Positions 2,376 through 55,133 of a stretch of 64,000 nucleotides of DNA are shown piece by piece (positions within the stretch are counted from its first letter, which is position 1; the number at the start of each line of letters is the position of its first letter). Both the position numbers and the translations under genes were made by a program. Source of the DNA: a virus (Duplodnaviria > Heunggongvirae > Uroviricota > Caudoviricetes). A model generated the notes under the pieces. That model saw only the letters and a program-made list of their open reading frames with translations, searched no databases and had not been told where the DNA came from. The DNA lies in IMG/VR virus record IMGVR_UViG_3300017585_000052; one strand, given 5' to 3'.

Positions 2376-2448
2376 ACGGTATAAATGACGGTGTTATACC
2401 GTTCCTATTGGAACGTAATTTGTACCGCTATACAAGGTGATGAATATG

Positions 2449-2952
2449 AATCCCGGAAAACAATTTGAAAAGAATTTTGCCAATTCCGTACCGAAGGATG
2501 TTTACTTTATGCGGATTAAAGATTCAGCAAATAACTTTATGAGGACTTCTTCCTCCGCTTTTGCTACGAGCAACCCTTTTGACTGTTTTATGTTATATGA
2601 TGGAAACTTTATTCCAATAGAACTAAAAAGCACAAAAGGAACGAGTTTTAGTTTTTAGACAGAAGCGTGCGAAGATGGCAAAGATATTAAATATCACCAA
2701 ATTAAAAGTTTAGTTTAGGCTTAGACTTTTAAGAATGTTATTGCTGGATTTGTTTTTGATTTTCGTAATAGTGATACTTATTGGATGAGTATTACAGACT
2801 TTTATAAATTCTATTGCGAGACCTCTAAAAAAAGCATAAATGAGCAAGATATTATAAATAATAATGGAGTAGTAATTGACAAGAGACTTATGAAAGTCAA
2901 TTATAAATATGATATACAAGGGCTTTTAGATAATATAACGTCTAAAAGGTGA
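2449..2952 (+). CDS. putative PD-(D/E)XK family nuclease
   Basis: FDCFMLYDGNFIPIELK resembles a D..(E)xK nuclease core. Frame continues through TAG at 2656, 2719 and 2725 to TGA at 2950. Confidence 0.35.
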
Positions 2953-2983
2953 TGATATACTGTTACGTTAGGAGGTCTGATAA

Positions 2984-4060: not shown

Positions 4061-4075
4061 CGAAAGGGGAAACTT

Positions 4076-4759: not shown

Positions 4760-5312
4760 AAATACTTACGCAGCAAAACAGTTCATGAAAGCGTATAATC
4801 AACAGTTAGATAGTCTACAAAAAAGGTTGTCTAAATTGGTTGAGAAGATAGCTAAAGAAACTGTTTCTCGCGTTCAGGACTATATAAGAATAAATTACTA
4901 CGAAATGTACCCAGAAGGGGATAATTATGAGCGACTTGGTATGAATGGCGGTTTTATGGGAGCCATAACCTATGATTTTGACCCGTCAGGGCCAAGCGCT
5001 ACAATTTATTTTGATGCTTTCAAACTTGTATTTGGGCATAAAGGCAGCAAAGTTTTACCATCGCATATTGAGGCTGGACAACATTTCACGCAAGGATTAT
5101 ATGACTATATGATGCTCGGAGAATGGCCTTCGGGAAAACAATCAAACACGGTGGCCCCAAACTTTACTGGCCTTAATACGTATGGTGAAATGGATGACGC
5201 TATAACAGACTGGCTGAATGATTATATATCTGATAGGGTTTGGCAAGCTATGAGTGACTCTGGTTTATATATGTCTAAATCAAGCTTTGTACACGTTTGG
5301 AGTAATGGATAA
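4737..5312 (+). CDS. hypothetical protein
   Basis: Start taken at the internal ATG preceded by GAGGGTGAA. Overlaps the previous gene in another frame. Confidence 0.45.
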   Translation: MSSSTKLKNTYAAKQFMKAYNQQLDSLQKRLSKLVEKIAKETVSRVQDYIRINYYEMYPEGDNYERLGMNGGFMGAITYDFDPSGPSATIYFDAFKLVFGHKGSKVLPSHIEAGQHFTQGLYDYMMLGEWPSGKQSNTVAPNFTGLNTYGEMDDAITDWLNDYISDRVWQAMSDSGLYMSKSSFVHVWSNG

Positions 5313-5343
5313 GGAGGTGGAGTAATTGGCAGTAAATGACATT

Positions 5344-8300: not shown

Positions 8301-11300
8301 GAAGCCGTCAATGTTGTATTGGGCGGTATATCTAAAGCTGCCAACCATTTACTTGGAGCCGATGGTATTGGTGGATTATTCAGTGGATTTTTGGACTTCA
8401 AGGTCGTACTTGAAGGAATAAACAACGGCATGACTAAAACTGTTGTAGGTTTTACAAAAGGTGCAAGCGCGTCAACTATTCTCGGCAATACTATTGGAAC
8501 CATGGCAAAACAATTTACTGCTGCTGGTGGTGGAATTACTGGCATAGTTTCTGCAATAAGTTCTTTTGTCAGCTTGCATCCAGCAATAACTGCCGTTGCT
8601 GTCGCACTTGGAGCAGCATATGCAGCATACAAGATTTGGGATGCAAACTTTAATCCCGAAACAAAGATTGAAAATGCCAAAGAAGCGTACCAACAGTATG
8701 CTGACGAAATTACCGAAATCAACTCTTAGATTGCAGAGCTTGAAGATAAATCCGAGGCAATAACTTCGCAAGAAAACTTGACCTAGGCTCAAAAAGATTA
8801 TAATGTCGAGCTTGAAAAGACTATTGCCAATCTCAAAAATGAAAAAGCCGCCAAAGAAGAAATGCAACTCACTGAATTGCACAATTAGGCTTCGGCAGAG
8901 GGGGACGAGGCTCGTTCTACAAGTTTTTGGACTGGCAAATCAGAATACGATTCTACCCTTCAAGATATAAAGTACGCGCGTACAGATAAAGATAAATCTG
9001 AGGCAGAAGAAGAAGCCAATGATTTAATCGACACATACGAGAGCTACATAGATACTTTAGATGCTGTTGTCGAGGCTGGCGGGGAACTTACTGACGAGGA
9101 AAAAGAAAACCAAGAACTGTATGAAGAACGCATACAAACCCTGCTTATGCTCACTGACGAGACACAAGCATATGCAAGAGCAATAACCAATAATGATGAT
9201 ATTGCATCTAAATTGTCTGAGGTAAAGCAGAAAATAACAGACAATGCCACCGCTTACCAAAAGGCCCGCGAGGTAATTGAACAAGCCGTCACGGATGAAA
9301 TCAATGCTTCTGGTAAATAGTATACCGCGCAAGAGCGTGTTAATTTAATATACGAGGCTACCGAGCAGATTTTAAGCAACTACGGCTTTACACTCCAATC
9401 TGTCGCAGATAATAATGACACCGTTACAGACTCCTATTCTTCGCAAGCAGAGGCAATGGAGTCATATATAAGCACAATCAAAAGTCTTGAATCGAGCGAA
9501 GAAACGCTTTAGACTGCATTTAATGAAATGACTGAAAGCGGAGAAATTCAGGCAGATACAATGTCTGATTTGATTGCCGCTTATCCAGAACTTGCTAACT
9601 CCGTTGAAATCGTTGATGGAGCAATGCAGATTAACCTCCAAACTCTTAGCGACACAGCTTCTGCACAATACGAAACCGCAGCAGCAGCAGCAGAGGCGCA
9701 AGCCAATAATACTGAAGCGGTAATGAATCAAGTCTCTGCTCGACTGGAATTATATGGTATAGAGGCGCAAGCACTTTCGGCACTTGCTGGCGGTCAAATG
9801 ACTGCAAATCAAGCGGCGTTACAAGCGGCAGACTAGGCGGTAAAGACTGGACAAATCTCCGAAGATGAGTATGATATAATCTACAATGGAGCCGCTGCTG
9901 CCGCCGAACAATATGTTGGCCTTGCAGAAGGCATGGCGCAAGCTCAAAAGAATATCGAAGCTCTTAGAGCAAAAGCAAGCGGTGGGCTTTCTTATACTGG
10001 TTCTAAAAGTAAGTCATCTGGCAGTTCCTCTGGGAGCACGGCAAAAGACGAAGCCTCCGATGCTCGTAAAGAGGCGTATGACCTCGAAAAATCTCGTTAC
10101 GAGCAAACCCAGAACGAATTAGAACTTGAAAAATCTAAACTTGAAGCGCAACAAGATTAGATTGAGAATGAAAAGTCTGCGTTAGAAATAAAGAAGTCTG
10201 AATTAGAGTTACAAAAAGAACTCAAAGAGCAACAATTAGAAGTATTACAAGATGAAGAAGATTCTTTGGATAATATCTTGGATTTGATTAAAGAAATGAC
10301 AGACCAAGATTATGAGAACCTAAAGACTAATCTTGAAAACATATCTGACTATATTGACACATTCCGAGATGTTCTTTCTGACGTTAAAGACACCTACGAT
10401 GATATTGTAGATGACGCTAAAGAAAAATTAAAAGCAGAAAAAGAAGCCGCTGATAATCAAAAGAAGCTACAGGAGAAATCTCAAAAGGTTGCAGAAATTC
10501 AAGCTCAACTTGCAGAGATTCAATTCGATGATTCTTCTGATGCACAGAACAAGAGGGTAGAGTTGACTTCACAACTGAATGAAGCCATGCAAGACTTAAA
10601 TGACGAAGCGTCTGATTAGGCTTACGACACTGCTGTTGACGCCTTAGACAATACGGAAGATAAAGTCGATTAGGTTTTTGAAGCTATTGATACGATACTC
10701 GAATCTTCTCAGGGTGTAATAGAGGAATATGTCAATTATATTTCTGACGTATTACAATCTGACGGTAATTTGTACCAAGCTGCGTTGGCTCAATTTAGTG
10801 CTGCTGACGAACAATCTCGTCAAGAGCTATATAATAGACTACAAGAATATAATGCACAATATGGTGACGGTATCGAAGCTAATGTCACTAAGAAGTGGGA
10901 AGATGCTCTAACTGCATATAATAAGTACGCAGAAGCCACTGGTTCTACCGATACTGGTACTATACGTAATTATATGTAGACTCAGGATAATACTCTAACC
11001 GCAAGCATTAAAACTGATGAGCAAGCTATTAACACTTTAGATAACCAAATTAGCCAGCTTGAAATAGATATAAGCAAATTCGACCAGTCTATTTCTGATG
11101 TTGAGTCTCAAATCAATAATGTAAAATTGGCTTTAGACCAATTAGAGATAGATTATAACGGTCAGGAATTAACTATATCTGGTGTTACTGCTGCCACACA
11201 AGAAGAAATAAATGCAAAGGCTGGTGTAACTGCCGCTACTAATGATAATACAACCGCATTAAATGACAATACAGTTGCACAACAAGAAGAAGAACAAGTT

Positions 11301-12032
11301 ACAACTTAGGTCGCTGACGCTATGAGTGACACCGAGTATAGTGCCACTGGTGCATCTGACTCGTTAGACAAGGTAGATTCTTCTGCCTCAAATGCAGACA
11401 CTGGACTTGGCACACTGACTTCAAGTGCCGATGCTGCTGCTGGCGCATTAGACGGAGTTGCCGCTTCTGCGTCTGGGGTAGACACGGGAACTTCTTCTAC
11501 TGGCAGCACAAGTACATTAGGCAATCTATTTACATTCTTAACTGGTGGTGGAGATTTGTCGAACGTATTTGCGAGTTATCTTGGTAGAGCAATAACTAAA
11601 TATGTTCCTAAAGGAATCAAGGCTTTGGCAAGTATTGCCGTTGCATCTAATCATGAAGGAACAGATTATGTTACTAAGGCCAATTCTTGGTTGGATGACA
11701 TGCTGGGATTAGGCAATGATGAAACCGCTCGTGTCCTTAAAGTCGGTGAAGCTATTATCCCTGATTACGCAAACAACATATCACTTACACAAGTAGATAA
11801 ACCGTTTAGCGGAGCGTCCGCTATAAATCATCCTAATACTTCAAATATATCTAATAGCAACAGTTCTCTAAACATTGATATGGGTGATTTGGATATTAGT
11901 GGAATTGATAGCGAAGCGTTAAGAAACGAGTTACAATCTATTAAGAACGAAGCTACTGACGAAGTGTATAGCACTTTGTATCGCTATATTAAAGTTGGCG
12001 GTTATCGCAATGTAAGAAGATTATACGCATAA
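5344..12032 (+). CDS. tail tape measure protein, TAG-recoded and interrupted by an intron-like insert
   Basis: About 20 ORF fragments share one frame (mod 3 = 1 up to about 7580, mod 3 = 0 from about 7857), separated only by in-frame TAG. Terminal stop is TAA at 12030. Classic tape-measure motif KVGISLRDENGILRESGEVLDEIAAKW at 7866; alpha-helical Q/A/E-rich composition. Confidence 0.7.
7585..7850 (+). other. putative self-splicing (group I-like) intron in the tape-measure gene
   Basis: TAA/TGA stops in all frames and a reading-frame change between flanking exons. Strong local hairpins GAGATGGT...ACCATCTC and GAGCGT...ACGCTC. Boundaries are approximate. Confidence 0.35.
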
Positions 12033-12130
12033 TATAGATTATTCCTGATACTGATTTTTCTTTAGATGCAGAGAAGTTAAGTCAGGGTTTATTATATAAA
12101 TCTAAGAAAAACAAAAGGTGGTGAAAGATA

Positions 12131-13022
12131 ATGGCATTGATGGGTTATCCATTTATATTTGACGATATTCCATCGGAGTTCTATGGATGTTCTATTGCTT
12201 TCTTAGATGAGGACGCAAATAAGCGCAATAGTGGTTCTGGTAAAACATTCACCACTATTACACCGTTGCGTTCTGGTAAACAAATTCTTATCAACTCTAC
12301 TCAGGATTAGGCGTTGTCATTTGGAGTAGAGATACTATTTGACTGCCCGACAGACATCCATACATTAACAAAGGTAAAATCTTGGCTTTCTTCGCCACTA
12401 ACTTTTAGAAAATTAAGAATATGCGCAGACTTATTCGACCAATATTACTATAATTGCTATTTCACATTGAATTAGGACTTAATATATATTGGCGGCTATC
12501 GAGGTGTGTCTGCCACTGTGACTTGTGATGCGCCTTGGGCATGGGAGAATCCTAAAACAATAAATCTAACAAGTGGTGTTACAACTACATTCTATAATGA
12601 ATCTGAGGATGAGGAACTCATGAAACCTATATTGAAGTTCACTACTGCGAGTTCTTCCTCTTATGTTATTATCGAAGTATACAATGAAGATTATTCATTT
12701 GATAGAACTACCACCATATGTGCGCTTGCTGGAAAGACATTAAGTTATACGCAACAAAACGGCACAACTGTGAGTTATACTACGCCAGACTATTCTAAAT
12801 CATGGCTAAGTATAGAAAATGTCACTTTGGACAATGGCTCTGGAATATTTACTTCTACAAATTCGAGTGGAGAAGTAGTTACAGGGCTTAGAAGAATACA
12901 AGGGTTTAACAAGGTATTCTTGTTCATACCTAAAGGTAAATCATATATTAAATTTACGGCAAGCGCTGTGACAAATGCCAAGATTATATATTAGAATATA
13001 AAGAGAATCGGAGGTGGTTTCT
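12131..13022 (+). CDS. distal tail protein (Dit)-like
   Basis: First gene after the tape-measure gene; RBS AAGGTGGTGA. In-frame TAG at 12308 and 12464; stop TAA. Confidence 0.45.
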
Positions 13023-16000
13023 ATTAAGACTTCATTTACTTTTGGTGGACGTTATCGTTACCCAGAACTGATATTGTGTAACCCAAATAAATCCATGCTT
13101 GGTTATCTAACAAATATTAAGAATCTAAAATTCACGCTTAGAAGTATGGACGTTTCAGAAATGACTTTTGATGTGTACCGTACTGATGGAACGGCTGAGT
13201 TTGATGATTATAGGTATGTTAGGAAAATGCGGCTCATTCATGTTGAAGAAATGGGATATTTCGTAATATAGGAAGTAAAAGAGGTTCTTGGTGACATTGT
13301 TCCGCATAAAGAAGTCACTTGTTATTCCGCTGAATATATGTTAAACTACAAGCCAGTTAATCTAACAACAATTACTTCTATAACTGGCGGGACAACCACA
13401 TTTGCTAAAAGCTATAAGTTCTATGACCAAAAATATCCTGACACTACGCTGATGTATATGTTATTTACAGCGGCTGGATTTACAGACTGGAAATTTGATT
13501 TTAAGTCAATCCCAGAAGTTATTTTGGACAGGTATCGTTCTTTTGATGATACTGGCGATGGATTATATGGATTTTTACAAAATTACGTTTCAACGGCGTA
13601 TGACTGTGTATTTACTTATGATATAGAAAATTACGAAGTAAGCGTCCACACCAAAGAAGAACTTGTTACCCCGTCAAGCGTATGTCTGTCTTTTGATAAT
13701 CTTCTCCAACAGGCTAACATTACCGAACTGTCTGATGAAATTTCAACCATCCTTGCGGTCAAGGGTTCTGAAAATATGAGCCTGTCTCGTATTAACCCAA
13801 CGGGCACAAACAATATCTATAATTTTGACTATTATCTTGGCAAGTATGATTATGACGGGAATCAAGATGACCACTGGCAAGATTGGATTGACGAGAACTT
13901 TAGCGTAACGTCAGTAAAGTTTGACGACAACGGAGATATAGTTTGGGCTACCTCTACTGTCCCAGCAAAAACCACCACTACATTTATAGACCATGTAGAG
14001 CTTTGGCAATAGCAGATTTACAAGCTCATAATGAGTTCTAACAAGCAAGGCTCTTATGCGTGGTTATTAAAGCTGTACACATATCTAAATGCAAAGTATG
14101 TCTATATGACAGCTCAATAGCAATATGCTGAGTATATTTACAATTATTGTACAGAGGCTATCTCGACATACCAAGAAGAAACGAAAGAAGTCAAAAAATC
14201 AAGCTGGCTTACAATACTAATTGGCGCTGGTGTTGCTCTCGCAGTCGTTGCTGGTGTTGCTCTTGCTGCGTTTACTGGCGGCGTATCACTCGCCGCAGTT
14301 GGTACAGCGCTTGCTGGAGGCGGTGTTGCTGTTGCTGAAACGCTTGGACTTTCAGGTGCCGCTGCTACCATCGTTGGTGTTGCTGGATAGGCGTTATTTA
14401 CTGCTGGTGTCTCTACTGCATTTAGTGGACTTTTGCAACTCGGTTTAACCACTTATCAAACTAACATTACAAAAGAAGAAATGCAAAAGTACCAAGGTGT
14501 AGCTCAGAGTAATCTAAATGCAATCAGAAGTGGTAATGGTTATTATTACAATCTTACTCCTTCTACTATCACCAACTTAGCTTCTGGTACATATGGGAGT
14601 TTTGTTGTAGACGAGCCACTGTATTGGGTTTCTGGCACATATAATTCAAGCAGCGAAGATTCAATATACCAAAAAGTTCCTACTGATAGTGGTGTATCTT
14701 CTACTACTACTTAGATTTATTGTATAGACGTTCTTGAAAAGAAAATAGATTATGTTACAGACCAAATAGAAAAATACATTAACGTGTATGCCTACAAAAA
14801 TTGGTTTAGCACAAAAGAAAAAGAAACTCTCGAACCGTTCTTAATTCAGAGTGAATACACCGATGAGAGTTTTACTGCCACCGATGATGTTGACGTTAAA
14901 AACGCAAGCGACCCTCAAACTTATGTCGCCACAAGCCAAGGCACTATGACAATAGAAGAATATAATAACGCCACTAGTGGTTATTATGCTGAATATGTTT
15001 GTGCTGGTGACACTGTAAATTATAAAGCTACTCCTTATGTCATCAATGAACAATAGGTTCGTTATTGGATGGCGAATAATACTTCTGGCACTGAATATTC
15101 TCAATACAAGAATAATCTGAGCAAACTTCACGGCTCTTTCTATATTACCTATGATGGTTCGGGTTGGAGTGTGAGCGACTCTACTGGACAAATTGGTTAT
15201 GTTAGCAAATATGGTAGTGCATACCCGTCAGATATGGGTATAACAGCCAATACACATGACGGTTCTTATACTTATACTCCGCAACGCAACGACTATATTC
15301 TGTTGAAACTGTATTCTGATGAGATAGAAATTATAGATACTACTATAATTGCAATGCAATTAGCGCAGCAGGGGTATGATGTACTCGAAGAATGTAGTCA
15401 ACCAGCTTTTGGCTTTGATATATCATGCGCAAACTTTATCTTATTGCCAGAATATACAGAGTGGACAGAGGATATTGGATTTAATATCGGCAATATAACT
15501 CTCGGTACTGAAATTACTGTAATAGATAACAGCGGTACCGTATACAGACCGTTTGTACAAGAGATGTCGTTTGAATACGATAACCCTGACAGTTTACAGT
15601 TTACATTTGGAAATAAGTTTGCACTTGGTAAAAGTGAGTTCACTCTTGGACAATTACTTTCCGAGACTACAAGTTTGGCGCAGAGGACTCAAAGGACTCT
15701 AAGCGCTTATGGAGACTCTACTTCTACTTCAACTTATTCTAATTCAACTGTTACTCAGGGAGTACAAGAGCAAATAGACAAAGCAAATCAAACAGATGAA
15801 GATTTGCAAAAACAATTAGAACAAGAGCAGGCTGCTCTTAGAGCAGAAGATGCTCAAATACGGGCAGAACTTGACGCGCAAGAAGAATAGTTCAACACGG
15901 ACATACAAAACGAACGTACTGCAAGACAAACGGAGATTCAAGATTTGTAGGCCCAACTCGATAATGTATTGGAATATATTCAAAATATGGACATAACTCA

Positions 16001-17045
16001 ACGCATAGCTGATGCAACAAGTTCGATGAACAACTCTATGGCTGGTGGGCTGGGGCTGTATTGTACTCAAATCACGGAAAGTAATGGGTCTATTAAGTAT
16101 TGCTACCATGATGGCGCAACTATGGCAAGTAGTAAAACATATTATTACTATACATCTAGTGGGTATGCCTATGCAACTTACGAAACTCCCGGTATTATTA
16201 CAGAGTCTAACATTGAAAGTTGGACTGGTTGGCAATACGGGATGACATCTTCGGGCCTCATGATAATGAACGAGATATATGCCCATAAGATTACAGGTGA
16301 TTTAATAGAGGCCAACACTATAACCTCTATAAACTTAGGTGCGAGTTGTATAAATGCTTCTAATATTAACGGCAAGATTATAACCGGTGATTTGATAGAG
16401 GCTAATAGTATATACGCTGATAACTTATCTTATGATGCTGTGTTTAGAAAAATATGGTAGCAATCGCTTAGTTCAATGTCAGGTGGTTATACAATATCTA
16501 TGACTACTGACGCAGAGGGAAATTCCATCAGTGGTTTTTATGGAGCTATTGTATATACCGCTGGGAGTAAGGATTTTACGTCAGCAATTTGTACAGTCAA
16601 CAATATAACTTCACTAATTTCGCTAGTTTCTTCGGCTGCGATAGGCGGTACTTATGTTTATTCATCGCGATTCATTGGTGCTAACTCTGGTGAAGTCGCT
16701 TCAACTAATAGCGGCTCTTATGACACTGTTAGTTGTAGAAGCTTTAAGTATATTTATAGTTCTTCAACGAACCGCTATTTATATTTTTATGATAACTACA
16801 CACTTGCGTTTGGAACATTCAAGGTAGCTGGTAAGTCTTGGGGAATGACCGTTGGAATTTCCTTATGTACCTGTCTTTGTCCCAGTACAGGATGCGGTGC
16901 CACGTTCTGGAACGGTGGCGCTGGGCCAATTTGGGAAAGTTTCTGCGGGGTAACGAGTGGCTCTACTAACGTGTTGCCAAAACGTACCCGAAACAACTAT
17001 TACAATATTCCTTGGCGTGTATATGGATTTAAGATTGGATTGTAA
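13014..17045 (+). CDS. Tal-like tail-associated protein / receptor-binding giant protein
   Basis: GTG start. N-terminus RYRYPELILCNPNKSMLGYL..FDVYRTDG resembles the siphovirus Tal N-terminal domain. One frame from 13014 to TAA at 17043, interrupted only by about 9 in-frame TAG. C-terminus has ITGDLIEAN repeats and a Cys/Gly-rich tail. Confidence 0.45.
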
Positions 17046-17063
17046 CGAGGGGAAGTGAACTAA

Positions 17064-18740
17064 ATGCCAGATTTAACTAATATTGCTATTGTTGCTGTAA
17101 TGGACAACTTAGGTAATATTCATAAAATAAACTACGAGACGCTGGAGAATTTGCCGGGAGCTATCAAAAACCCTTATTCCATTACAATATTTGGGTAGAC
17201 TTATGATGGCAGCAACAGCGTGACTATTGCCCCAACAGTTGCAAGCGCAACAGAACTTGGCTGCGTAAAGCCAGTAGCTAAAACTTCTGCAATGTTACAG
17301 GCCGTTGGTGTAGATTCCAACGGATTGCTATATACGCAAGGCGTAACGATAGATACAGTTGTTATGCGCAACAGCTCCTCTGCTGTTAGCGGTAACGCTG
17401 TTTACTCGTTTGTTGACACAAACCTTTCTGCTGTTTCTTCTTAGATGTCAGACTTAAAAGATGAAATTACAAGTGAGTATGAAACAGCAGACACTAAACT
17501 ACAAACGCAGATAACTTCAAACGATACAGATATTTCAACATTATAGGGGAATGTCACCACTATTAACACGTCTATTTCGGGCGTAAAAACCGACATGAGT
17601 TCGTTGGAAACAAAACTGCAAAAAGAAATAGATGCTAATACTACGTCAATCACAAATAATTACAATACGCTGACGGCAAAGAACACTTCACAAGATACCG
17701 CTATTTCTACTAACGCTTCAAATATTACAACTAATGCTACTGAAATATCTAACACAAAAGTTTCACTTAGCTCCGCTATCGAACGCATATCTGCTAATGA
17801 AACAGATATATCTAAATTACAATCTAAAGAAACGGGTAAATTTTTCAGCACAGAAACAGAACTTATAGATTACGCTGCTTCAACTGGCGCAAAAGATTTA
17901 GTTGTAGGCGAAGAAATGTATGTTACTGGATAGACCACATACTTCTATGTGTGGAATGGGACTTCTGCAATAAAGTATATTACTCTTGCTGGTGAAGATA
18001 ACTTTATGGCAAAAATAAACCCTGTCGGAACTGGATTCTTCAAGATGAATAGCGAATCTGGAAGTATTGGGTCAAACGGTGTTAGCCTTGGTGATAACAA
18101 TTCTTAGAACGGAACTTGTGGTTTCACTATTGGCTATGGACTAATAGAAAATATAGATTACGGTGGAGCTATCGGTAAATATAACGCTACTCCGTCCGAT
18201 GATGAATTATTTTCTGTCGGCTATGGCGATGATGACGATAATAGGAAAACTCTTGTAAGATTAACCACGGAAGGTACTCAAAAATATTACGGCGACATTG
18301 TGGCCTATTCTTCTGATATAAACTCAACTAAAGAATTTAACGAAGAATTATCTACTTACCACTATTCTCAAATTAAAGGTGAAATTATTAAAGTCTCCGT
18401 GGATTATGACACATTTATATCAAAAATCACTAAAAATGATTCTAATGCCTATACATTTGAATATATTTTAGACACGGACAACATAGGACATTGGCAATCC
18501 GATAGCTTTAACTTTAAGCCGGATATTCAATGGAGCGGTATAAACTATTATCCAATAAGTACGATAGGTATTTCTACAACTGATTCTGAGGGTAATGCCT
18601 ATTCCAGCTATGGAGTAGGAGACAAAATTACTATTAGATTAGTATATTCTTCTGAGATTAGTATGTATCAATTATACAGTGCTTTTACTAAACTTGGTCT
18701 GTATATAGATGAAGATGGCGATGTTTGCCAATATGATTAA
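17064..18740 (+). CDS. tail fibre protein
   Basis: Frame continuous through about 6 in-frame TAG. Fibre-like Ser/Thr/Asn repeats (ISTNASNITTNATEISNTK). Ends LYIDEDGDVCQYD with TAA. Confidence 0.6.
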
Positions 18741-18793
18741 CTTTTTTGATATATAACTTTTGTTTCAAATCATAAATTGAAAGGAGGGCTGCT

Positions 18794-19164
18794 ATGTATT
18801 GTGAATATGACAAATATCTTGTTCATTTGCATACAAGAGAGATAATCCAAGGAGACACTTGTGTATTTGCCTATCAATTTACAGATTAGGACGGCGGCGC
18901 AATAATTCCTACTGCCAGTCAGTTCTCATGGAAGTTATGTACTTATGATTACTATGATGAAGCTGTCATATCAATTCCAGCATCTTCTTCTTAGATTACG
19001 GTAGATTCCTCCACGGGAATTATTTATTTAACATTAACTGCTGCTAATACTTTAACATTGCAAAATGGCAAATACATACAGCAGCCAGTTCTTACATATG
19101 ATGGAACCCCATACATTAGGGCATGGGGAGAAATCATTGTTAGAAGAAAGGTAGGTGGAACGTA
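18794..19164 (+). CDS. hypothetical structural protein
   Basis: RBS AAGGAGGG. In-frame TAG at 18887 and 18992. Stop TAA overlaps the next ATG (TAATG). Confidence 0.45.
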
Positions 19165-19689
19165 ATGGTGAATAGAGCAATGGCTACACTTGTGAATCAA
19201 TTTATGTTTGGGCAACTTGGGATAGCTACCGCTCCTGACACATGGTATGTAGGAATATTAACTTTAAGTATTCCAACTACAAGTTTAGATGGCGATATTA
19301 GTGGAAAAGAGTTGGATTTAACAGGATACTCTCGTGTAGCTTTGGCAAATACATCAGATAATTTTACTGTGACAAGTTCTACCTCTATACTAAGTTATGT
19401 CGTTAATAAAAACGATATTATATTCCCCAAAATTGGTGGTAGCACTAATGGCACAGTCGCAGGATTTTTCCTGTCTGACACTGAAACTGGCAATGCTTAT
19501 ATCTGGGGGAATATGGCGACTACAAGAACAGTATATACTAATTCTGCTGTCGTTATTAAAGCTGGCGCTTTACAATTTGGATTAAGCAACGCTGGTTCTG
19601 GCGGCACTTCTGTCACTGGATTGTCCGTTGACGAAGATGGTATTCTGTCTGGTGTTTCTGCGGTATCTGCAACTGGCGTAATGTCGTGA
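19165..19689 (+). CDS. hypothetical structural protein
   Basis: Intact ORF; stop TGA. Confidence 0.5.
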   Translation: MVNRAMATLVNQFMFGQLGIATAPDTWYVGILTLSIPTTSLDGDISGKELDLTGYSRVALANTSDNFTVTSSTSILSYVVNKNDIIFPKIGGSTNGTVAGFFLSDTETGNAYIWGNMATTRTVYTNSAVVIKAGALQFGLSNAGSGGTSVTGLSVDEDGILSGVSAVSATGVMS

Positions 19690-19699
19690 GGTGGTATAA

Positions 19700-19900
19700 A
19701 TGTTTTATGACACCAAAGGCTTTATAGTTGAACAAATACCACTGTTTGACAGAACAAGAACACTTTCTGTCATCGGCGCACAAAAACCAGCGACTATCCA
19801 CATTGATAACTTAGATAGAAAAACGTATATAACCGATGCTGGTTTTGATACGTATTTCTGGTCTAATGTTTATGACTCTCTAATTTCGGATTTCTCGTGA
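19700..19900 (+). CDS. hypothetical protein
   Basis: RBS GAGGTGG; stop TGA. Confidence 0.4.
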   Translation: MFYDTKGFIVEQIPLFDRTRTLSVIGAQKPATIHIDNLDRKTYITDAGFDTYFWSNVYDSLISDFS

Positions 19901-20100
19901 CGGTCTTATTGGGGATATTGCGCCTCTCACTATCGGTGATGTTGGGGCAAGAACCATATTTTCTATTACGAGATGGGAGTTAGAATAATACCCGAACTCA
20001 AAAGTGCTATATAGCACAGTCATCTTATCCATACGTAAGACTATTCATCTTTTACATGAAGAAAATTCTTTGTATGGGGGGGGGGTGAAATCAAGCAACG

Positions 20101-21018
20101 ATGAAAACAGTGAAAGAACTAATAGATTACAGCCCACCAAGACGATTTTCTATGCAACAGTGTTTTGAAATCATAATCAGAGAACCGTCAACAAGACGCA
20201 CAATTTGTGTTTTAGATGATTGTAAAACTACTAACCTTGAAAACACAATAGAATTAGTCTATTAGATGGGCGGTGCTGGAAATGCTCTAATCGGTGGCGC
20301 GTGGGGACATAGTAAACGTGCCACATTAACGGTTGAGTCTGCCACATACAGCACTGATGTAATGGCGTTGCAGAACGGAACAAATGTAGAATATGGGTCT
20401 CAGACAATCACCGCATTTGATATTTTGGATATAGATTCAGATTTCAAAGACGGTGTAAAATTAAAACATACTCCTATTTCAACTGGTGGATATGATATTG
20501 GTTACGTCTATCTCTTAGGAGATGACGGGAGTATCGAAAATAAACTAATTCAGGGAGATGTAGCCATCTCAGGACAATTTATCTGTAATAATGATACTTT
20601 GTATTTTGCGGACGGCGATGTAGCAATCGGGGATAAAGTCTGTTGCTCATATTCGTATACTTCTTCTAATGATAGTACAAGAATCACCAATAAAGCAGGC
20701 TCTATGCCAAAAATGGCTCTGATTACTGCTATCGGTGTCGCAAAGGATATTTGCTCTGGTGATATGTGGCCTTGTCAATTAGAAGGACTTGTCCAGATTG
20801 GTGGAGCATCCAATCTTGATTTAAGTGCGGACGGAGATACGATTACACAATCAATCACTATGGAATTTGTCACAAGATGTAATTCCAGAAGTATGTATCA
20901 ATTTGTGGTTTATCCGCAAGATGAATACAGAGGTGCTTTGATTTACGATATAGCTCCGCTGACAATAGGTTTTATTGCACCTATGACAATAGAAGAAATT
21001 ACCAAATGGCCTATCTGA
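20101..21018 (+). CDS. hypothetical structural protein
   Basis: ATG 15 nt after a G10 tract. In-frame TAG at 20263 joins it to ORF 20266..21018. Stop TGA. Confidence 0.45.
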
Positions 21019-21133
21019 CCATTGTTACAAACGAAGCCTTCTTTAGATTACTTGACAATATTGTTTAATCCCCAACATATTATTTTAGTAGTCTAAAGTA
21101 TAAATAATTATTTATTTTACGGAGGTAAAATAT

Positions 21134-22339
21134 ATGGGAAAACTTTTGAGAGATGAAACTTATATCGAGCAGATGAACAAACAGAACGCGCTTCTGGAAG
21201 TTCTTGTTGCCGATAAGCTGGCGAGTGCTTCCGCTAATTGGGCAGAAATCGCCAAGATTATTAAGGGCGGTTATGGCTCTTATGTCTACTATCCCGGCGA
21301 CCAGTTCAGCGACACTTGGGCTGACGCTTATGCTACTGGCGGTTCAAAGGAGTACACTTATCCTTGGCACGTTGCATCCCATCGCACTGTTACCCTGAGT
21401 GATGGTGAGACTAAGAGCGGTATGATTATTCAGGCTCACTACGCTCATCCTTTTGGCGTTCAGTTTAGCCATCAGCGTGCTTTCCTTGCTTGCCCCTCTG
21501 GACTTGTTGCTGGCACGTATTATTTCACCATTGAATCTGCTTGGGGTACTAATGTTGCCGCAAACGATGTTGTTTGCTTCACTACTACTCAGTCCGTTCC
21601 GCAGGGCGGTTGTATCGCTGGTTGCTACGGCGCACCCGACCAAGCGAAATCTAATTGGCGTATTTATCTGTATGCCGCTGACCGCACTACGATTCTTGAG
21701 ACTATTGTTCCTACCTTTACCACTCCTGACAGCGGCACAAATCTCGGCACTCAGCATCTGAATAAGCGTGATGGGAACCTGAACTCCACTCAGGAGATGG
21801 CTTACGGTTGGAACCGTTGGTCTACCTCTGCGCTGCGTCAGTACCTCAATAGTTCTGCTGATAAAGGCGCGTGGTGGACTGCACAGGACGAGTGGGATAT
21901 TGCGCCTAACGAGCTTGCATCAAAGGCTGGTTTTATGGCTGGTCTGCCAGAGGAACTCGTGAACGCAATTAAGCCTGTTCAGGTCACTACTTACACCAAT
22001 ACCGTTCAGGATGGCGGCACTGCGGACATTACCTATGATAAGTTCTTCCTCCCTGCATTGCAGGAAATCCATGTTAATCCGCAGATTCAGGGCGAAGGCG
22101 AGGCATGGGAGTATTGGACTCAGGTTTCTGGTTCTGTTACTCCGCTGGCACAATACGGTACTTATTCTCAGATGATTACTTATGCAGTTGAGAATCATGT
22201 TAGTCCGCAGTATGTTCGTTTGCGTTCGGCGAACCGTGGCGGCGCGAATAATACGTGGATTGTCTACTCGTCTGGCTATGTCAACGTCAGCGGCGCTAGC
22301 GTCTCGAATAGGTTTTCGCCGGCCTGCGTCATCTGCTAA
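21134..22339 (+). CDS. retroelement target protein (variable C-terminal domain, probable receptor-binding protein)
   Basis: The C-terminal ~40 codons coincide with the variable repeat. Gene is GC-richer than its flanks. RBS GGAGG; stop TAA. Confidence 0.7.
   Translation: MGKLLRDETYIEQMNKQNALLEVLVADKLASASANWAEIAKIIKGGYGSYVYYPGDQFSDTWADAYATGGSKEYTYPWHVASHRTVTLSDGETKSGMIIQAHYAHPFGVQFSHQRAFLACPSGLVAGTYYFTIESAWGTNVAANDVVCFTTTQSVPQGGCIAGCYGAPDQAKSNWRIYLYAADRTTILETIVPTFTTPDSGTNLGTQHLNKRDGNLNSTQEMAYGWNRWSTSALRQYLNSSADKGAWWTAQDEWDIAPNELASKAGFMAGLPEELVNAIKPVQVTTYTNTVQDGGTADITYDKFFLPALQEIHVNPQIQGEGEAWEYWTQVSGSVTPLAQYGTYSQMITYAVENHVSPQYVRLRSANRGGANNTWIVYSSGYVNVSGASVSNRFSPACVIC
22207..22327 (+). repeat. 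variable repeat (VR) of the diversity-generating retroelement
   Basis: 121-nt match to 23155-23275. All ~15 differences fall at adenines of the template copy (AAC to GTC, AGC or GGC). Confidence 0.8.
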
Positions 22340-22479
22340 TCCCTACCCTAAAAGTGTGATGTTTAATTACACTTTTAGGGAATCCAGCCATGCGAACGCA
22401 TGGCGTATACAGAGTGACGTAAACGGTTAAAATAACCTTAAAAGGTCAATTAAATATTACTAAAACAAACTTGCCATAA

Positions 22480-22526
22480 CTTCTCTTTAGATGTACAAAG
22501 ATACGTCCGCGTTATCTAAAGAGAAG
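22480..22526 (+). promoter_or_regulatory. 13-bp perfect inverted repeat downstream of the target gene
   Basis: CTTCTCTTTAGAT..21 nt..ATCTAAAGAGAAG. A second small hairpin ACACGC/GCGTGT lies at 22554-22570. Could be a terminator or a retrohoming-enhancing structure. Confidence 0.45.
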
Positions 22527-22603
22527 TCTATATATAATTTTCTTTTAGATGTTACACGCAATGCGCGTGTTAAATTTCTATAAATAGATATTTACAAAGG
22601 AGT

Positions 22604-23113
22604 ATGATTATTATGTCAGTACCAGCGCATAGACGTGCGCCGAACAAGCTCACTGCTTTGGTTAAAGCTAGAGAACTTGCTTCTTATACATTAAAAATAA
22701 CTCAAAATCAAAACACGTTCCAGCCTAAAAACGGGACGGTTGTAAGAGATAAAGTGCAGTCATGCGCGGCTGACATATTTTTGCTTGCAAGTGATGCTAA
22801 TGATATTAACGTAAGTAAGAATCCTGATTTGCTTGAAAAGCGTCAGGAATTGCAAAAAGAAGCATTATATAAATGTAAGGCGTTAAAGAATCTCATTAGT
22901 TTAGCTGGTATAACATATCATTTGCGTGATAGACGGATTGCCTATTGGACGAGCTTAGTGGAAGAAACGTATGCGTTGCTAAGAAAGTGGTATTTAGCCG
23001 ATTGTAATAGATACGGCGCACCACTTACGCAAGAAAATGTTGTTGGCGTTTCAAAGAAATCTAATGCAAATGATATAAGAGCAAGCTCTTATGAAGATAA
23101 TTCTCCCTTTTGA
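22604..23113 (+). CDS. putative accessory variability determinant (Avd)-like protein
   Basis: Basic, helical ORF between the variable and template repeats. This position is typical for Avd. Confidence 0.4.
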   Translation: MIIMSVPAHRRAPNKLTALVKARELASYTLKITQNQNTFQPKNGTVVRDKVQSCAADIFLLASDANDINVSKNPDLLEKRQELQKEALYKCKALKNLISLAGITYHLRDRRIAYWTSLVEETYALLRKWYLADCNRYGAPLTQENVVGVSKKSNANDIRASSYEDNSPF

Positions 23114-23154
23114 AAGGATTGATTATATGATTAAGGAATGGAGTGAGGCTATGT

Positions 23155-23275
23155 GCAGAATGTTCGTTTGCGTTCGGCGAACCGTGGCAACGCGAATAAT
23201 ACGTGGAATGTCAACTCGTCTGGCAATGTCAACAACAACAACGCTAGCAACTCGAATAGGTTTTCGCCGGACTGT
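23155..23275 (+). repeat. template repeat (TR) of the diversity-generating retroelement
   Basis: Adenine-rich (AAC runs) counterpart of the variable repeat, immediately upstream of the reverse transcriptase. Confidence 0.8.
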
Positions 23276-23467
23276 ATTTTCAAAAATGGCCTATCGACAA
23301 GCATCTAATGATTGTACGGCGTGTGGGAAAACGCAGGGAGTCTCGCTACCATGTTATATCTGAAATTAAAATCTACGGATTAAACAGATAATAGATATAA
23401 CGAAACAATCATGGGGTGATGTCGTTGACTTGCGAGTTAGTACGGCTATACACATCCCATCAATTAT

Positions 23468-24571
23468 TTGTTTTTTCTAAATTCGAGGTGTTTACTCATC
23501 GAAAAGTTAGAACTAATTAGGAAGTATGGAGAAATAGATGTTTGTGATTTTGAGCATCTAATGGAATCAGAACACAAATGCGTAAAAGGTGTATTATGGA
23601 AAGGCTCTGTCGCGGCTTTTGATTTGAACAAAATTGCTTTGCTCAAAAAGTTGTCAGATGAATTACATAATGACACTTATCGCCCACTTCCTCCAAGAAC
23701 TGTTTTAATCACCTACCCTAAACGCAGAGTTGCTGTCAGCATAGCATTTCGTGACAGAATCTACCAAAGAAGTCTAAACGACAATATTGTCTATCCTCTT
23801 ATGACAAGAAGTTTCATTTATGATAACTGTGCTTGCCAAAAAGGAAAGGGTTCAGACTTCGCAAGGGGTAGATTAAAATGTCATATTCAGAAATGCTTTC
23901 GTAAAAATGGCATGGACTTCTGGGTATTGCAATGTGATATAAAACACTATTATGATAACATGAGACATGACACGACAGAAGCATTATTCCGTGAGCATTT
24001 ACCACCACGTTACGGGAATATGGTCGCTAAAGTTCTTAATGAACAGTATCAAGGTGATGTTGGGTTTAATCCCGGTAGTCAAATGATACAAATAGCGGGT
24101 ATCTCTGTTTTGGACAAGTTAGACCATAAGATTAAAGAGCGGATGCACATTAAACATTATTTGAGATATATGGATGACTTTATTTTGATGCACCCTGATA
24201 AAGAATACCTGTTACAATGTAAAAAGTGGATTAACGAGGAATTGTCCAAGATAGGTCTGTCTCTACATGAAAAGAAAACAAAACTGTATCATATCTCAAA
24301 AGGAGTTGACCTTTTGGGATTCCATTATAAACTTTTCAACACTGGAAAAGTAACAATGTCCGTACTTGGACAAAATGTAAAACATGAACGCCGCAAACTT
24401 CGCAAAATGGTTAAACTTGTTAAAACTGGTAGAATACCAAAAAGTAGACAACCATTAACCAAACAAAGGTTAGATATGTGCTATCAATCATGGAAAGCAC
24501 ATATAGCTCATGGAAATTCTCATAAGTTACAAGTACGAATGGATAAATTCTACAAAGATTTATGGAGGTAG
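23468..24571 (+). CDS. diversity-generating-retroelement reverse transcriptase
   Basis: Motif C YLRYMDDFIL (YxDD). GSQ variant of the GxxxSP motif, typical of retroelement reverse transcriptases. GVDLLGFHY. Annotated stop is TAG. Confidence 0.85.
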   Translation: MFFLNSRCLLIEKLELIRKYGEIDVCDFEHLMESEHKCVKGVLWKGSVAAFDLNKIALLKKLSDELHNDTYRPLPPRTVLITYPKRRVAVSIAFRDRIYQRSLNDNIVYPLMTRSFIYDNCACQKGKGSDFARGRLKCHIQKCFRKNGMDFWVLQCDIKHYYDNMRHDTTEALFREHLPPRYGNMVAKVLNEQYQGDVGFNPGSQMIQIAGISVLDKLDHKIKERMHIKHYLRYMDDFILMHPDKEYLLQCKKWINEELSKIGLSLHEKKTKLYHISKGVDLLGFHYKLFNTGKVTMSVLGQNVKHERRKLRKMVKLVKTGRIPKSRQPLTKQRLDMCYQSWKAHIAHGNSHKLQVRMDKFYKDLWR

Positions 24572-24575
24572 GATT

Positions 24576-24749
24576 ATGATTTTCACAAAAGCGAAAATGA
24601 CTCCTTACGAGGAAAAGATGGCTGAGTATCGCAATTCTCAAATCGAGGAACAAGGTTCTCAGATTGAGTATCTTGCTATTATGACCGATGTTGAGTTCCC
24701 TTCTGAGGAAACTACGACTTCTGGCAATGTGGATGAGGTGACTGAATAA
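24576..24749 (+). CDS. hypothetical small protein
   Basis: RBS GGAGGTAGG. TAA stop overlaps the next ATG. Confidence 0.4.
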   Translation: MIFTKAKMTPYEEKMAEYRNSQIEEQGSQIEYLAIMTDVEFPSEETTTSGNVDEVTE

Positions 24750-24904
24750 TGACTGAACTTAGCGCACATGGTATCAAGGTTAAGAAGTATTATGAGGCTG
24801 GCTACTGGAATAAACAGATGGTTTATAATGTAACTACTAAGGGTTACATTACCCCAGAAGAATATGAAATTATCATCGGGGAGCCTTACGCTGCCGCCAA
24901 CTAA
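24749..24904 (+). CDS. XkdX-like small phage protein
   Basis: Sequence ..YYEAGYWNKQMV..KGYITPEEYEIIIGE resembles the PBSX XkdX family. Confidence 0.45.
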   Translation: MTELSAHGIKVKKYYEAGYWNKQMVYNVTTKGYITPEEYEIIIGEPYAAAN

Positions 24905-24924
24905 TCTAAAGATGAATAAAGAAG

Positions 24925-25563
24925 ATGGCTCCAATGTCCGTAATTAAATATAGCGTATCAAAAGACGGCAGCACTGCTCTTTCTGCGAATTTCAAAGTTA
25001 GAGAATTTGCTTGCAATGATGGTTCCGATGAAGTTCTAATTGATTCTGACTTGGTTATCGTCTTGCAAAAAATTCGTGACCACTTCGGAAAGCCGCTAAT
25101 CATAAATTCAGCATACAGAACCTCTGCCTATAATAAAAAAATAGGTGGTTCTTCAAGTTCATACCATGTAAAAGGTATGGCAGCGGACATAAAGATTAGC
25201 GGTGTTTCCGCTGTTGAGTTGGGGCTTTATGCTCAAACTATAACGAATGGTGTAGGTGTGTATTATTATGGCAACACTGAATTTGTTCATGTAGATACAC
25301 GGTCGAGCACTGTGTATTGGTTATGCGCAAAAGCTGGCAAATACGAATATTATCACTCTGCACTAATGCCTACAATTAAACGTGGCGGTAATGTCGGTAA
25401 AACTTCTGCTGTTAAATTTCTCCAAAAGAAACTCGGTATATATGCTGATGGCTCATTTGGGAAATCAACAGAATCTAAAGTAAAAGAATTTCAGAAAGCT
25501 AATGGACTTACTGCTGACGGTATTGTCGGTAAAAATACATGGAACAAATTGTTCTGTGTTTAA
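24925..25563 (+). CDS. endolysin: peptidase M15 domain plus C-terminal peptidoglycan-binding domain
   Basis: M15 motifs FKVREFACNDG..SAYRT..N...GG...SYHVKGMAADI. C-terminus LGIYADGSFG...GLTADGIVG is a PG_binding_1-like repeat. Confidence 0.8.
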   Translation: MAPMSVIKYSVSKDGSTALSANFKVREFACNDGSDEVLIDSDLVIVLQKIRDHFGKPLIINSAYRTSAYNKKIGGSSSSYHVKGMAADIKISGVSAVELGLYAQTITNGVGVYYYGNTEFVHVDTRSSTVYWLCAKAGKYEYYHSALMPTIKRGGNVGKTSAVKFLQKKLGIYADGSFGKSTESKVKEFQKANGLTADGIVGKNTWNKLFCV

Positions 25564-25597
25564 CATTTAGATGTAACGATATAAGAGGTGAACCTAA

Positions 25598-25912
25598 ATG
25601 ACTATTGAAATGTTTTGCACTTTGCTTCTCGGTCTTGGTACTGGTACTACTCTTGTTATTGAGTTCATCAAGAGTTTCCTCGAAAAGACTGGCAAAACTG
25701 TCTCCGCGAGTTCGCTCTCGCTTGTTACTGGCGCTATTGTTGGCGCTGGCGGTATGGTGCTGTATTTCATTATGGCTAATATTGCTTTTACCCCTGCAAA
25801 TCTTATTTGGATTGTCGGCATGGCTATTGCTAATATAATGGGTAGCCAGCTTGGATATGATAAGATTGTCGCAGTAGTCAAACAAATGAGTTCCAAGAAA
25901 GAAGAAGCATAA
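25598..25912 (+). CDS. holin-like membrane protein
   Basis: 104 aa, 2-3 transmembrane helices and a charged C-terminus, immediately after the endolysin. Confidence 0.55.
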   Translation: MTIEMFCTLLLGLGTGTTLVIEFIKSFLEKTGKTVSASSLSLVTGAIVGAGGMVLYFIMANIAFTPANLIWIVGMAIANIMGSQLGYDKIVAVVKQMSSKKEEA

Positions 25913-25973
25913 TATCTAAATATGAAACATATCATATCCTAATATGATTTTTCTTTAGATGCAAAATAAAAAT

Positions 25974-26008
25974 GGGGCTGTCCGAAAGGACAGCCCTTAT
26001 CTTTTTGC
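25974..26008. terminator. bidirectional rho-independent terminator
   Basis: GGGGCTGTCC-GAAA-GGACAGCCC flanked by an A-tract upstream and a T-tract downstream. Sits at the convergence of the plus and minus modules. Confidence 0.7.
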
Positions 26009-26024
26009 GTTTTAATATTTTACA

Positions 26025-26330
26025 TCAAAAATAAAGATTTGAAGTCTCTGGCGGTTCTTCATCTTCGTCAAATGTTGGCGGGTGAGGCCAATTCGTCCAA
26101 TGGGTAATCTTGTCTCTCATATTATCGGAGAATTGATAAAACTCATTCATAAGACACCAACCAATATCTCCATTTCCAAAAATAGGCGGTGTAGGGTTAT
26201 ACCAAGCATCTAATACCATATTATACCAGCGCTCATCTCGTTCAGACCATTCATGCACATTAACTAAGTAATTTCCAGCTTGGTCTGGTAATTTATCTTT
26301 TACGCTTATCCATTCTTGTGTAAATTCCAT
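26025..26330 (-). CDS. DUF551-like hypothetical protein
   Basis: Trp-rich. N-terminus WISVKDKLPDQAGNYLV parallels the neighbouring ORF. Confidence 0.5.
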   Translation of the reverse strand: MEFTQEWISVKDKLPDQAGNYLVNVHEWSERDERWYNMVLDAWYNPTPPIFGNGDIGWCLMNEFYQFSDNMRDKITHWTNWPHPPTFDEDEEPPETSNLYF

Positions 26331-26331
26331 A

Positions 26332-26880
26332 TTATATTAACCTCCATTCTTTACCTTCTTCTACCGAAAGTATTGGCGCATAGTAAAGTTCATTTTCTAT
26401 TGTTATACGAAGGTCAAAATTGCGAGGAAAAGCAACTTTTTCTAAATTATATATCGGAACTCTAATTCTTTGATAGGTTGTTGCGATAGGCAATACTTCA
26501 TGATTTAGAATTTGATTAAATTTAATGCCGTAATCTCCAATAACTTCCTTTAGAGATACATCGCATTTCTGAGTGCTTGAAAGAAAGTCATCATACGTTT
26601 CAAATCTAATCATCAAAGGCAGCAATCCTTTGCCTTTTTCGATGACCGTAAATTTCTTCGCGAGCTTTTCAGGTTGCGGAACTGGCATCCAGAATCTGAC
26701 GCACCCTTTATTTCTTGGAGTCTCAACAGACCAACCTGATTTAGCATAATATTTTGAGAACATAATATCGTTGGCTTTTTCTTTGGAAGAAGAACTGCCA
26801 GCAATATATTCTGGCGCATATACTAAATACCAACCATTTTCTGTTGGCAATCTATCAGTAACAGAAATAAACTCGTCCAT
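26332..26880 (-). CDS. DUF551-like hypothetical protein (paralog)
   Basis: N-terminus FISVTDRLPTENGWYLV. Confidence 0.5.
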   Translation of the reverse strand: MDEFISVTDRLPTENGWYLVYAPEYIAGSSSSKEKANDIMFSKYYAKSGWSVETPRNKGCVRFWMPVPQPEKLAKKFTVIEKGKGLLPLMIRFETYDDFLSSTQKCDVSLKEVIGDYGIKFNQILNHEVLPIATTYQRIRVPIYNLEKVAFPRNFDLRITIENELYYAPILSVEEGKEWRLI

Positions 26881-26899
26881 TAGCTCTTATCTCCTTGTT

Positions 26900-27103
26900 T
26901 TATTTTGGCTTATATTGAGAACAATGTTTATGCGAAAAATGAAACACATCTTGTTGTAATTCTTCTCCGTAGAAATAGTATCTGTTCGGGCAACTACATT
27001 GATATTTATACTTCTTAGGAGCCGCTAAATCTATATCGAAACAATTATAAATCACAAGATAACGACATCGTTCGCAATCATATATTGGCTCGAAATCATT
27101 CAT
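26900..27103 (-). CDS. Cys-rich small protein (zinc-ribbon-like)
   Basis: CxxC...CSCP pattern. Confidence 0.4.
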   Translation of the reverse strand: MNDFEPIYDCERCRYLVIYNCFDIDLAAPKKYKYQCSCPNRYYFYGEELQQDVFHFSHKHCSQYKPK

Positions 27104-55110: not shown

Positions 55111-55133
55111 AAATTAAAATCTCCTAATCTAAA

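Follow-up and report, generated by a model that had tools for sequence, protein, structure and literature searches.

We analyzed a 64,000-nt stretch of DNA (hereafter the window; IMG/VR virus record IMGVR_UViG_3300017585_000052) from a tailed phage of the Caudoviricetes, focusing on positions 21134-24571, where a sequence-only reading had proposed a complete diversity-generating retroelement (DGR). Every testable component of such an element was found on the plus strand: a target gene (21134-22339) ending in a variable repeat (VR), the gene avd (22613-23113), a non-coding template repeat (TR), a spacer (23275-23467), and the gene for a DGR reverse transcriptase (RT; 23468-24571). The order target, avd, TR, spacer, RT is type B1, the most common DGR architecture (Wu et al. 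2018, PMC5758913).

The VR lies at 22208-22326 (start 22207/8), at the target gene's 3′ end, and spans codons 359-398. The TR lies at 23156-23274 (start 23155/6), also on the plus strand. Offset by 948 nt, the two repeats can be aligned with no gap, and their homology stops after 22326. All 14 mismatches among the 120 aligned nucleotides sit on TR adenines, an outcome with a chance probability of P ~2e-10 given 33 A in the 121 nt of the TR. Codon positions 1-2 of AAY codons take 12 of the 14 mismatches, and the AAC-to-GGC, -GTC, and -AGC changes recognized beforehand were confirmed in the alignment. The sequence-only reading had counted about 15 differences, all at template adenines; 14 of them stand, but the 15th (22327, T to C) falls just past the repeat and not at an A. 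Read in the VR frame, the TR comprises 14 AAY codons and 5 other A-containing codons. Because its adenines lie in such codons, no A-to-N change can create a stop codon, and ~10^18.7 protein variants are possible. Both strands of the 64-kb window were scanned for a second VR, and none was found.

Three near-identical contigs from other samples, L011 (JGI sample 3300029976) and L001 and L002 (IMG/VR samples 3300029968 and 3300017520), allowed VR alleles to be compared. L011 is 99.8% identical to window positions 17134-26339, with 17 differences in 9,206 nt. All 17 fall within the VR, between 22211 and 22307, at positions where the TR has A. L001 and L002, each 98% identical to the window, carry two further VR alleles, which brings the total to four; the TR is identical in the window and all three contigs. 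When the three ungapped alleles are taken together, substitutions have hit 24 of the 33 TR-A positions and, outside the boundary base 22207, not one non-A position. The positions seen varying lie between 22211 and 22308. In the RT region 23400-24200, the window, L001, and L002 show no difference. Heterogeneity of the VR restricted to template-A sites in related contigs was the decisive test named in the sequence-only reading, and this is the pattern observed. Since genomes 99.8% identical differ only at 17 TR-A sites of the VR, its turnover must be much faster than background substitution. Such population evidence, drawn from sequence comparison, indicates that the DGR is active in nature, with ongoing mutagenic retrohoming. 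The protein cluster shows the same picture of variation as the VR alleles. Exact-pattern scans for the VR-specific 3′ end returned 0 matches in JGI metagenome contigs and, in the viral collection, only the two contigs already known.

The gapped allele deserves separate description. The VR of L001 (3390-3512 of IMGVR_UViG_3300029968_000040) is 3 nt longer than the TR and carries five mutated codons, TAC CAC TAC CTC GCC, opposite the (AAC)4 of the TR. The extra codon would fit slippage at the run of AAC codons while the TR was being reverse-transcribed. Indels opposite AAC are known from earlier DGR work (PMC5758913).

The target gene encodes 401 aa, with an N-terminal helix and beta-sandwich followed by a C-terminal DUF6273 / C-type-lectin domain. 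The latter assignment derives from a DUF6273 domain match together with a C-type-lectin fold in the predicted model, so the fold anticipated for this terminus was recovered by structure modeling. That DUF6273 serves as a DGR target domain, with the VR placed at its C-terminal end, was known before (PMC11792537, PMC10743442). In the protein collection, the target family numbers 3,568 members, with up to 248 variants in some 90%-identity clusters, and its genome-bin matches are gut and rumen metagenome-assembled genomes, mostly of Clostridia; a look-up of the window's own target protein found no entry. By analogy, the product probably binds receptors, and its gene closes the tail module.

The composition of the target gene raised an alternative account of part of these data. 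The gene had been described as visibly GC-richer than its surroundings, and this is real (50% GC vs 38% for the window). The richness arises because A is avoided at third codon positions: the A frequency there (A3) is 0.08-0.09 along the whole gene vs 0.26-0.34 in its neighbors, with the corresponding T frequency (T3) unchanged. Such values could mean that adenine mutagenesis has left a footprint outside the VR as well, or that the target is a foreign module imported recently. In keeping with this, most related cassettes have a target whose GC content exceeds that of its locus, and target A3 lies below that of other ORFs across 47 loci, which are not independent of one another. However, the bias shows no gradient towards the VR, and the homologous targets of two related loci (L036 and L039) are undepleted (A3 ~0.30); in the sister lineage, at 66% protein identity, the bias persists, and this speaks against a recent import. 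Moreover, non-DGR genes share it. An A3-poor, T3-rich class (A3 0.06-0.16 vs a median of 0.27 over 61 ORFs) comprises the DGR target (21134-22339, plus strand) and, on the minus strand, the genes for the single-stranded DNA-binding protein (SSB; 54694-55113, A3 0.06) and an AAA_24 ATPase (55134-56117, A3 0.16), a short ORF (56191-56529), and a DUF2828/DUF7788/VWA gene (60614-62155, A3 0.06). Since SSB and other non-DGR genes belong to the same codon class, the bias is not DGR-specific, and we rejected both the footprint and the import as very unlikely. The composition of the target is that of a codon-usage class of the phage, which may stem from expression level, host adaptation, or shared origin. 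The GC-richness thus stands as an observation but loses its value as a sign of the DGR.

Downstream of the target, avd encodes 166 aa when read from its second ATG. The listed ORF starts at 22604; the start is most likely the second ATG at 22613, which has the Shine-Dalgarno sequence AAGGAG 10 nt upstream and gives an MSVP... start common to relatives. The product is basic (pI 9.4) and all-helical, and it matches PHROG 3206, 'Avd protein of DGR' (E 5.8e-8). A single-sequence structure prediction yields a four-helix bundle whose nearest structures are those of PF05635 and the Avd of Bordetella phage BPP-1. The basic helical ORF that had been noticed in the Avd position therefore has the fold of the Avd family. 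Members of this family sit between VR and TR in >50 related cassettes, and some match Pfam bAvd and 23S_rRNA_IVP.

The RT gene is delimited as the maximal ORF from TTG 23468 to a TAG stop codon. Its product matches RVT_1 (E 5.8e-16) and PHROG 1423 (E 2.5e-70), and the solved structure closest to it is that of the DGR RT from Bordetella phage (bRT; 8ub7_A, E 8e-15), over residues 25-354, nearly full length. The YMDD motif reported earlier is present, within RYMDDF. For motif 4, which reads [LIV]GxxxSQ in the DGR clade, PGSQMIQ of the window aligns on IGSLTSQ of bRT, with the Gly and Gln kept. The letters GSQ singled out beforehand do occur here, but out of register: the hallmark Gln is the second Q. 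Candidate start codons are TTG 23468, ATC 23498 (in frame, 7 nt behind GAGGTG), ATA 23534, and ATG 23561, the last being the one that the gene calls accompanying L011 use. The start region (23468-23565) is identical across the three near-identical contigs. An out-of-frame ATG at 23538 comes after GGAG.

At its other end, the TAG stop of the RT gene sits inside the Shine-Dalgarno sequence of the next gene, GGAGGTAG (24569-24625), both in the window and in a 68%-identical lineage. A functional extension by read-through of this TAG was considered and rejected; among relatives (L003-L008) it would add 5-32 codons that are non-conserved and overlap the next gene out of frame.

In IMG/VR the RT clade counts 260 relatives, and our comparison of cassette layout covers 80 of these loci. 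More than 60 of the 80 share the layout together with A-specific mismatches. The VR-to-TR offset, 948 nt here, is ~580-750 nt in most related loci and ~1,000-1,240 nt in a few, and the distance from TR to RT is ~160-310 nt. Megablast of 18000-27000 against GenBank phages gave no match, and by protein search the nearest relatives among GenBank phages reach ≤43% identity.

Several non-coding elements surround these genes. At the end of the VR, we assigned a candidate initiation of mutagenic homing (IMH) element to 22309-22339 on the plus strand (TAGGTTTTCGCCGGCCTGCGTCATCTGCTAA) by analogy to the Bordetella phage element (PMC5758913). It has a GC-rich CGCCGG core and is invariant in the four alleles. 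Its counterpart in the TR reads ...CGCCGGACTGTATTTTC, and the IMH*-like end of the TR is ...CGCCGGACTG. After the invariant CGCCGG the repeat ends diverge, to ...CGCCGGCCTGCGTC in the VR and ...CGCCGGACTGTATT in the TR. All four alleles share a fixed A-to-C change at 22323, which therefore represents a putative IMH/IMH* difference, not mutagenesis.

A hairpin had been noticed after the target gene in addition to an inverted repeat, and two were found on the plus strand. Hairpin 1 (22346-22380) has a 15-bp AT-rich stem and a 5-nt loop and starts 7 nt after the target stop codon. Hairpin 2 (22387-22404), with a 7-bp GC-rich stem and the 4-nt loop GAAC, lies 61 nt from the VR end. The fold of 22340-22410, which includes both, has an energy of -20.1 kcal/mol (z -7.9, equaled by 0 of 200 shuffles). 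In all related loci examined, a strong hairpin stands 10-21 nt past the target stop, conserved in position and not in sequence, and in two of them (L008 and L010) it is a textbook GCGCCC-GAAA-GGGCGC. The consensus for the hairpin/cruciform at phage DGR targets, which promotes homing in BPP-1, is a 7-10 bp GC-rich stem with a GRNA tetraloop located 4-34 bp from the VR (PMC3240598). A hairpin/cruciform downstream of the VR is present in only 34% of DGRs (PMC5758913). Hairpin 2 comes closest in form to the GC-rich tetraloop consensus. By this analogy, the post-target hairpins probably aid homing, and they may also act as a terminator.

Further downstream, 85 nt upstream of avd, lies a perfect inverted repeat (22479-22492 / 22514-22527; DNA fold z -5.2). 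Its perfection had been recognized earlier, but it measures 14 bp over 22479-22527 rather than 13 bp over 22480-22526. It is probably a regulatory site or a transcription-unit boundary. The region between target and avd (22340-22612) is 273 nt long vs ~140 nt in the sister lineage (L004, 5043-5181), where the VR-to-TR offset is 746 nt vs the 948 nt of the window. Hairpin 2 and the 14-bp inverted repeat both fall within the extra sequence of the window.

The spacer of the DGR RNA, on the plus strand between TR and RT, contains a three-helix element at 23412-23459. Across 46 distinct related spacers, its 15 pairs are 88% paired, a figure that drops to 32-47% if the 3′ partner is shifted by 1-3 columns. 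Compensatory changes occur in 14 of the 15 pairs, and the covariation score is 0.80 vs 0.12-0.16, with 0 of 500 shuffles reaching the observed value. In BPP-1, structured RNA around the TR is needed for cis-primed reverse transcription (cPRT), a requirement predicted to be widespread, and the spacer (Sp) elements include an Avd-binding stem-loop, a template:primer duplex, and a cPRT stop (bioRxiv 10.1101/2023.10.23.563531). An Rfam scan of the cassette and the whole window detected nothing except one tRNA, with no group II intron or retron RNA. To our knowledge, DGR RNA has no curated Rfam family.

Given these results, we asked how firmly the region can be regarded as a working DGR. Five observations weigh against doing so. 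The evidence of activity comes from assembled contigs of different samples, not from reads within one population. The Avd of the window, taken alone, falls below every Pfam and NCBIfam threshold. The hallmark Ser of motif 4 is Ile in this RT, and the RT gene has no clear start codon: the ATG used by many relatives (ATG-GAx) is ATA-GAT here (23534). Finally, both hairpins depart from the consensus, the first in its AT-rich stem and 5-nt loop, the second in its GAAC loop, which is not GRNA, and its 61-nt distance.

Some of these features would suit a relic, a DGR that once worked and is now inactive, so that its TR/VR differences are fossils. The lack of an obvious ATG and Shine-Dalgarno sequence for the RT, with ATA where relatives have ATG, and the atypical hairpins fit this idea. 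A relic, however, would not be expected to leave genomes that are 99.8% identical and differ only at 17 TR-A positions of the VR. The TR shows perfect conservation, none of the RT, Avd, and target ORFs is broken, and the RT region is the same in the window, L001, and L002 throughout 23400-24200. We thus give the relic hardly any credence. It is scarcely conceivable that the VR varies by ordinary recombination or positive selection next to the RT of an unrelated retroelement (a group II intron, retron, or defence RT). In favor of this reading, hypervariability is frequent at receptor-binding tips, and NCBIfam does give sub-threshold matches to a group II intron RT (83.6 bits vs a cut-off of 300) and to Drt3a. 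Against it, 24 A sites and no non-A site are substituted, judged by an invariant non-coding copy 948 nt downstream, a rule that neither recombination nor selection would follow; the best solved relative is a DGR RT over the full length, no group II intron or retron RNA was found with Rfam, and RT, TR, and VR are linked in 60+ loci. We consider it highly probable that the region is a canonical, currently active target-avd-TR-RT DGR of an uncultured phage. The claim of a complete DGR holds, with related contigs differing in the VR only at template-A positions.

The observed parts, the adenine-specific substitutions, the invariant TR, the folds of target and Avd, the kinship of the RT with bRT, and the spacer covariation can be arranged into a cycle modeled on BPP-1, from which we infer cis-priming by the spacer and the roles of the IMH, the hairpins, and the target as receptor binder. 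An RT-Avd complex would bind an RNA spanning the avd 3′ end, the TR, and the ~190-nt spacer, using structured spacer elements that include the three-helix element. The RT would then copy the TR into cDNA, placing random nucleotides opposite template adenines. This cDNA would replace the VR at the 3′ end of 21134-22339, with the invariant GC-rich IMH-like end setting the 3′ boundary and the hairpins just past the stop codon probably helping homing. In this way, ~19 surface residues of the C-type-lectin (DUF6273) domain would be re-drawn, giving up to ~10^18-19 variants that could let the phage track changing host surfaces.

The host phage is uncultured and siphophage-like, with a genome of ~98 kb from gut or rumen-type samples, and its DGR is located in the tail/lysis module. 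ORFs as long as 349-1,395 codons open up on the plus strand (602-18740) only with TAG as a sense codon. These apparently recoded late ORFs include the two of the tape-measure gene, 760 and 1,395 codons long (5326-7608 and 7845-12032), and those for tail proteins of 1,347 and 558 codons (13002-17045 and 17064-18740). Upstream of the tail genes on the same late strand are genes for a family-2 glycosyltransferase and a tyrosine integrase/recombinase (614-1651 and 2984-4060, plus strand). The glycosyltransferase gene carries three in-frame TAG codons; the integrase suggests a temperate or site-specific-recombining lifestyle. With TAG taken as a sense codon, the ORF at 20266-21018 also lengthens at its upstream end, to 20089. 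Early genes on the minus strand, for a DnaE-type polymerase, a primase-helicase, and SSB, use the standard code.

The sister lineage (L003-L005 and L007) has in-frame TAG codons in RT, Avd, and the next gene exactly where other relatives (L006 and L017) or the window have Gln (CAA/CAG). This alignment with Gln codons supports a reading of TAG as Gln. As the TAG codons lie inside avd and RT, the DGRs of the sister lineage would need suppression to function. Amber codons have been reported in the RT genes of zeta crAss-like phage DGRs (PMC12386605), so recoded DGR genes are known in kind. No suppressor tRNA(CUA) was detected in the 64-kb window of the ~98-kb genome, where the only tRNA is tRNA-Arg(TCT) (58244-58317). 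A tblastn search for the residues aligned to the window's own TAG codons gave few matches.

The two tape-measure ORFs lie in different frames. The gap at 7553-7844 holds conserved GACUAAA and AUAGUCU core motifs and gives a sub-threshold match to RF00028 (21.8 bits, where the gathering score is 50; E 0.0023 when 501 nt were searched). This segment is a candidate self-splicing group I intron.

A 9-mer, TCTTTAGAT, recurs 18 times in the window vs 1.2 copies expected, a ~15-fold over-representation, and the 8-mer CTTTAGAT occurs 34 times vs 4.1 expected. Seven of the 18 copies of TCTTTAGAT are intergenic, in a window of which ~6% is non-coding. Examples are found at 12059, 21040, 22484, 22514, 24904, 25952, and 63674. 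Copies stand upstream of the target gene, in each arm of the 14-bp inverted repeat before avd, and on either side of the lysis genes, and two share the 19-nt context TGATTTTTCTTTAGATGCA. Judged by its distribution, TCTTTAGAT is probably a regulatory site of the phage. A 15-nt inverted repeat (21040-21054 / 24898-24912) that might have marked the ends of a mobile cassette was rejected, as both arms are TCTTTAGAT copies and one such pair is expected by chance.

These features raise the idea, which we regard as rather unlikely, that in this lineage the DGR is wired into the gene-expression switches of the phage. If so, the need of sister-lineage Avd and RT for TAG-to-Gln decoding would confine retrohoming to the late, recoded phase of infection. 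The TCTTTAGAT-built inverted repeat ahead of avd-TR-RT would suggest control by a phage-wide regulator, and the window lineage, having lost its internal TAG codons, would be uncoupled from the TAG gate.

Together, these findings describe a clean case of a well-known system and leave the understanding of DGRs unchanged. Near-identical genomes that differ only at template-A positions of the VR nonetheless provide unusually direct natural evidence of DGR activity. The element adds a well-delimited member, with 60+ relatives, to the large family of DUF6273 / C-type-lectin targets. Its covarying spacer RNA, divergent Avd family, and natural VR alleles form a comparative resource for DGR RNA-protein recognition.

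Three known groups of DGRs provide points of comparison. Like the zeta crAss-like phages (PMC12386605), the phage studied here appears to read TAG as sense in late genes, and amber codons occur inside RT genes, here those of the sister lineages L003-L005 and L007. Unlike in those DGRs, the window's avd, RT, and target have no internal TAG, and Avd, which is absent from most zeta crAss DGRs (PMC12386605), is present. The phage is not itself crAss-like and is set apart by a tape-measure gene of >2,000 codons, tail genes of the XkdX and YomU types, a DnaE-type polymerase, and strong Shine-Dalgarno sites.

The second group comprises the DUF6273 DGRs of gut phages, namely the Faecalibacterium prophages Lelie, Roos, Pioen, and CP11 and target2 of nd4/nd12, which likewise have the VR at the C-terminal end of DUF6273 and a C-type-lectin fold (PMC11792537, PMC10743442). 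The setting, phages of gut Clostridia, is also shared, and phage nd12 gives a weak tblastn match. Differences are the low identity (43% for the best GenBank phage record), the single target in the window, and its 401-aa length with an N-terminal helix and beta-sandwich of its own. Tentaclins carry the VR in an N-terminal C-type-lectin domain, followed by Ig-like domains and a C-terminal anchor motif (PMC10743442). We ruled out this identity for the target, whose VR and lectin domain are C-terminal and whose model contains no N-terminal VR and no Ig repeats.

The third is the DGR of Bordetella phage BPP-1 (mtd-avd-TR-brt). The target belongs to the DUF6273 family and has no detectable sequence similarity to Mtd; Avd has 166 aa with a disordered tail instead of 128 aa; and motif 4 reads GSQMIQ where BPP-1 has GSLTSQ. 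BPP-1 has an 8-bp GC stem with a GAAA loop, unlike the hairpins here; the 273 nt from target to avd include the 14-bp inverted repeat; and the host phage appears to recode TAG. In its overall design, by contrast, the window closely follows BPP-1: the gene order is the same, and the VR occupies the 3′ end of a gene for a probable receptor-binding protein of C-type-lectin fold. The two also have in common an AAY-rich TR, a basic four-helix-bundle Avd, a GC-rich IMH-like end, an inverted repeat after the VR, a structured spacer RNA, and an RT whose closest solved relative is that of BPP-1 itself.

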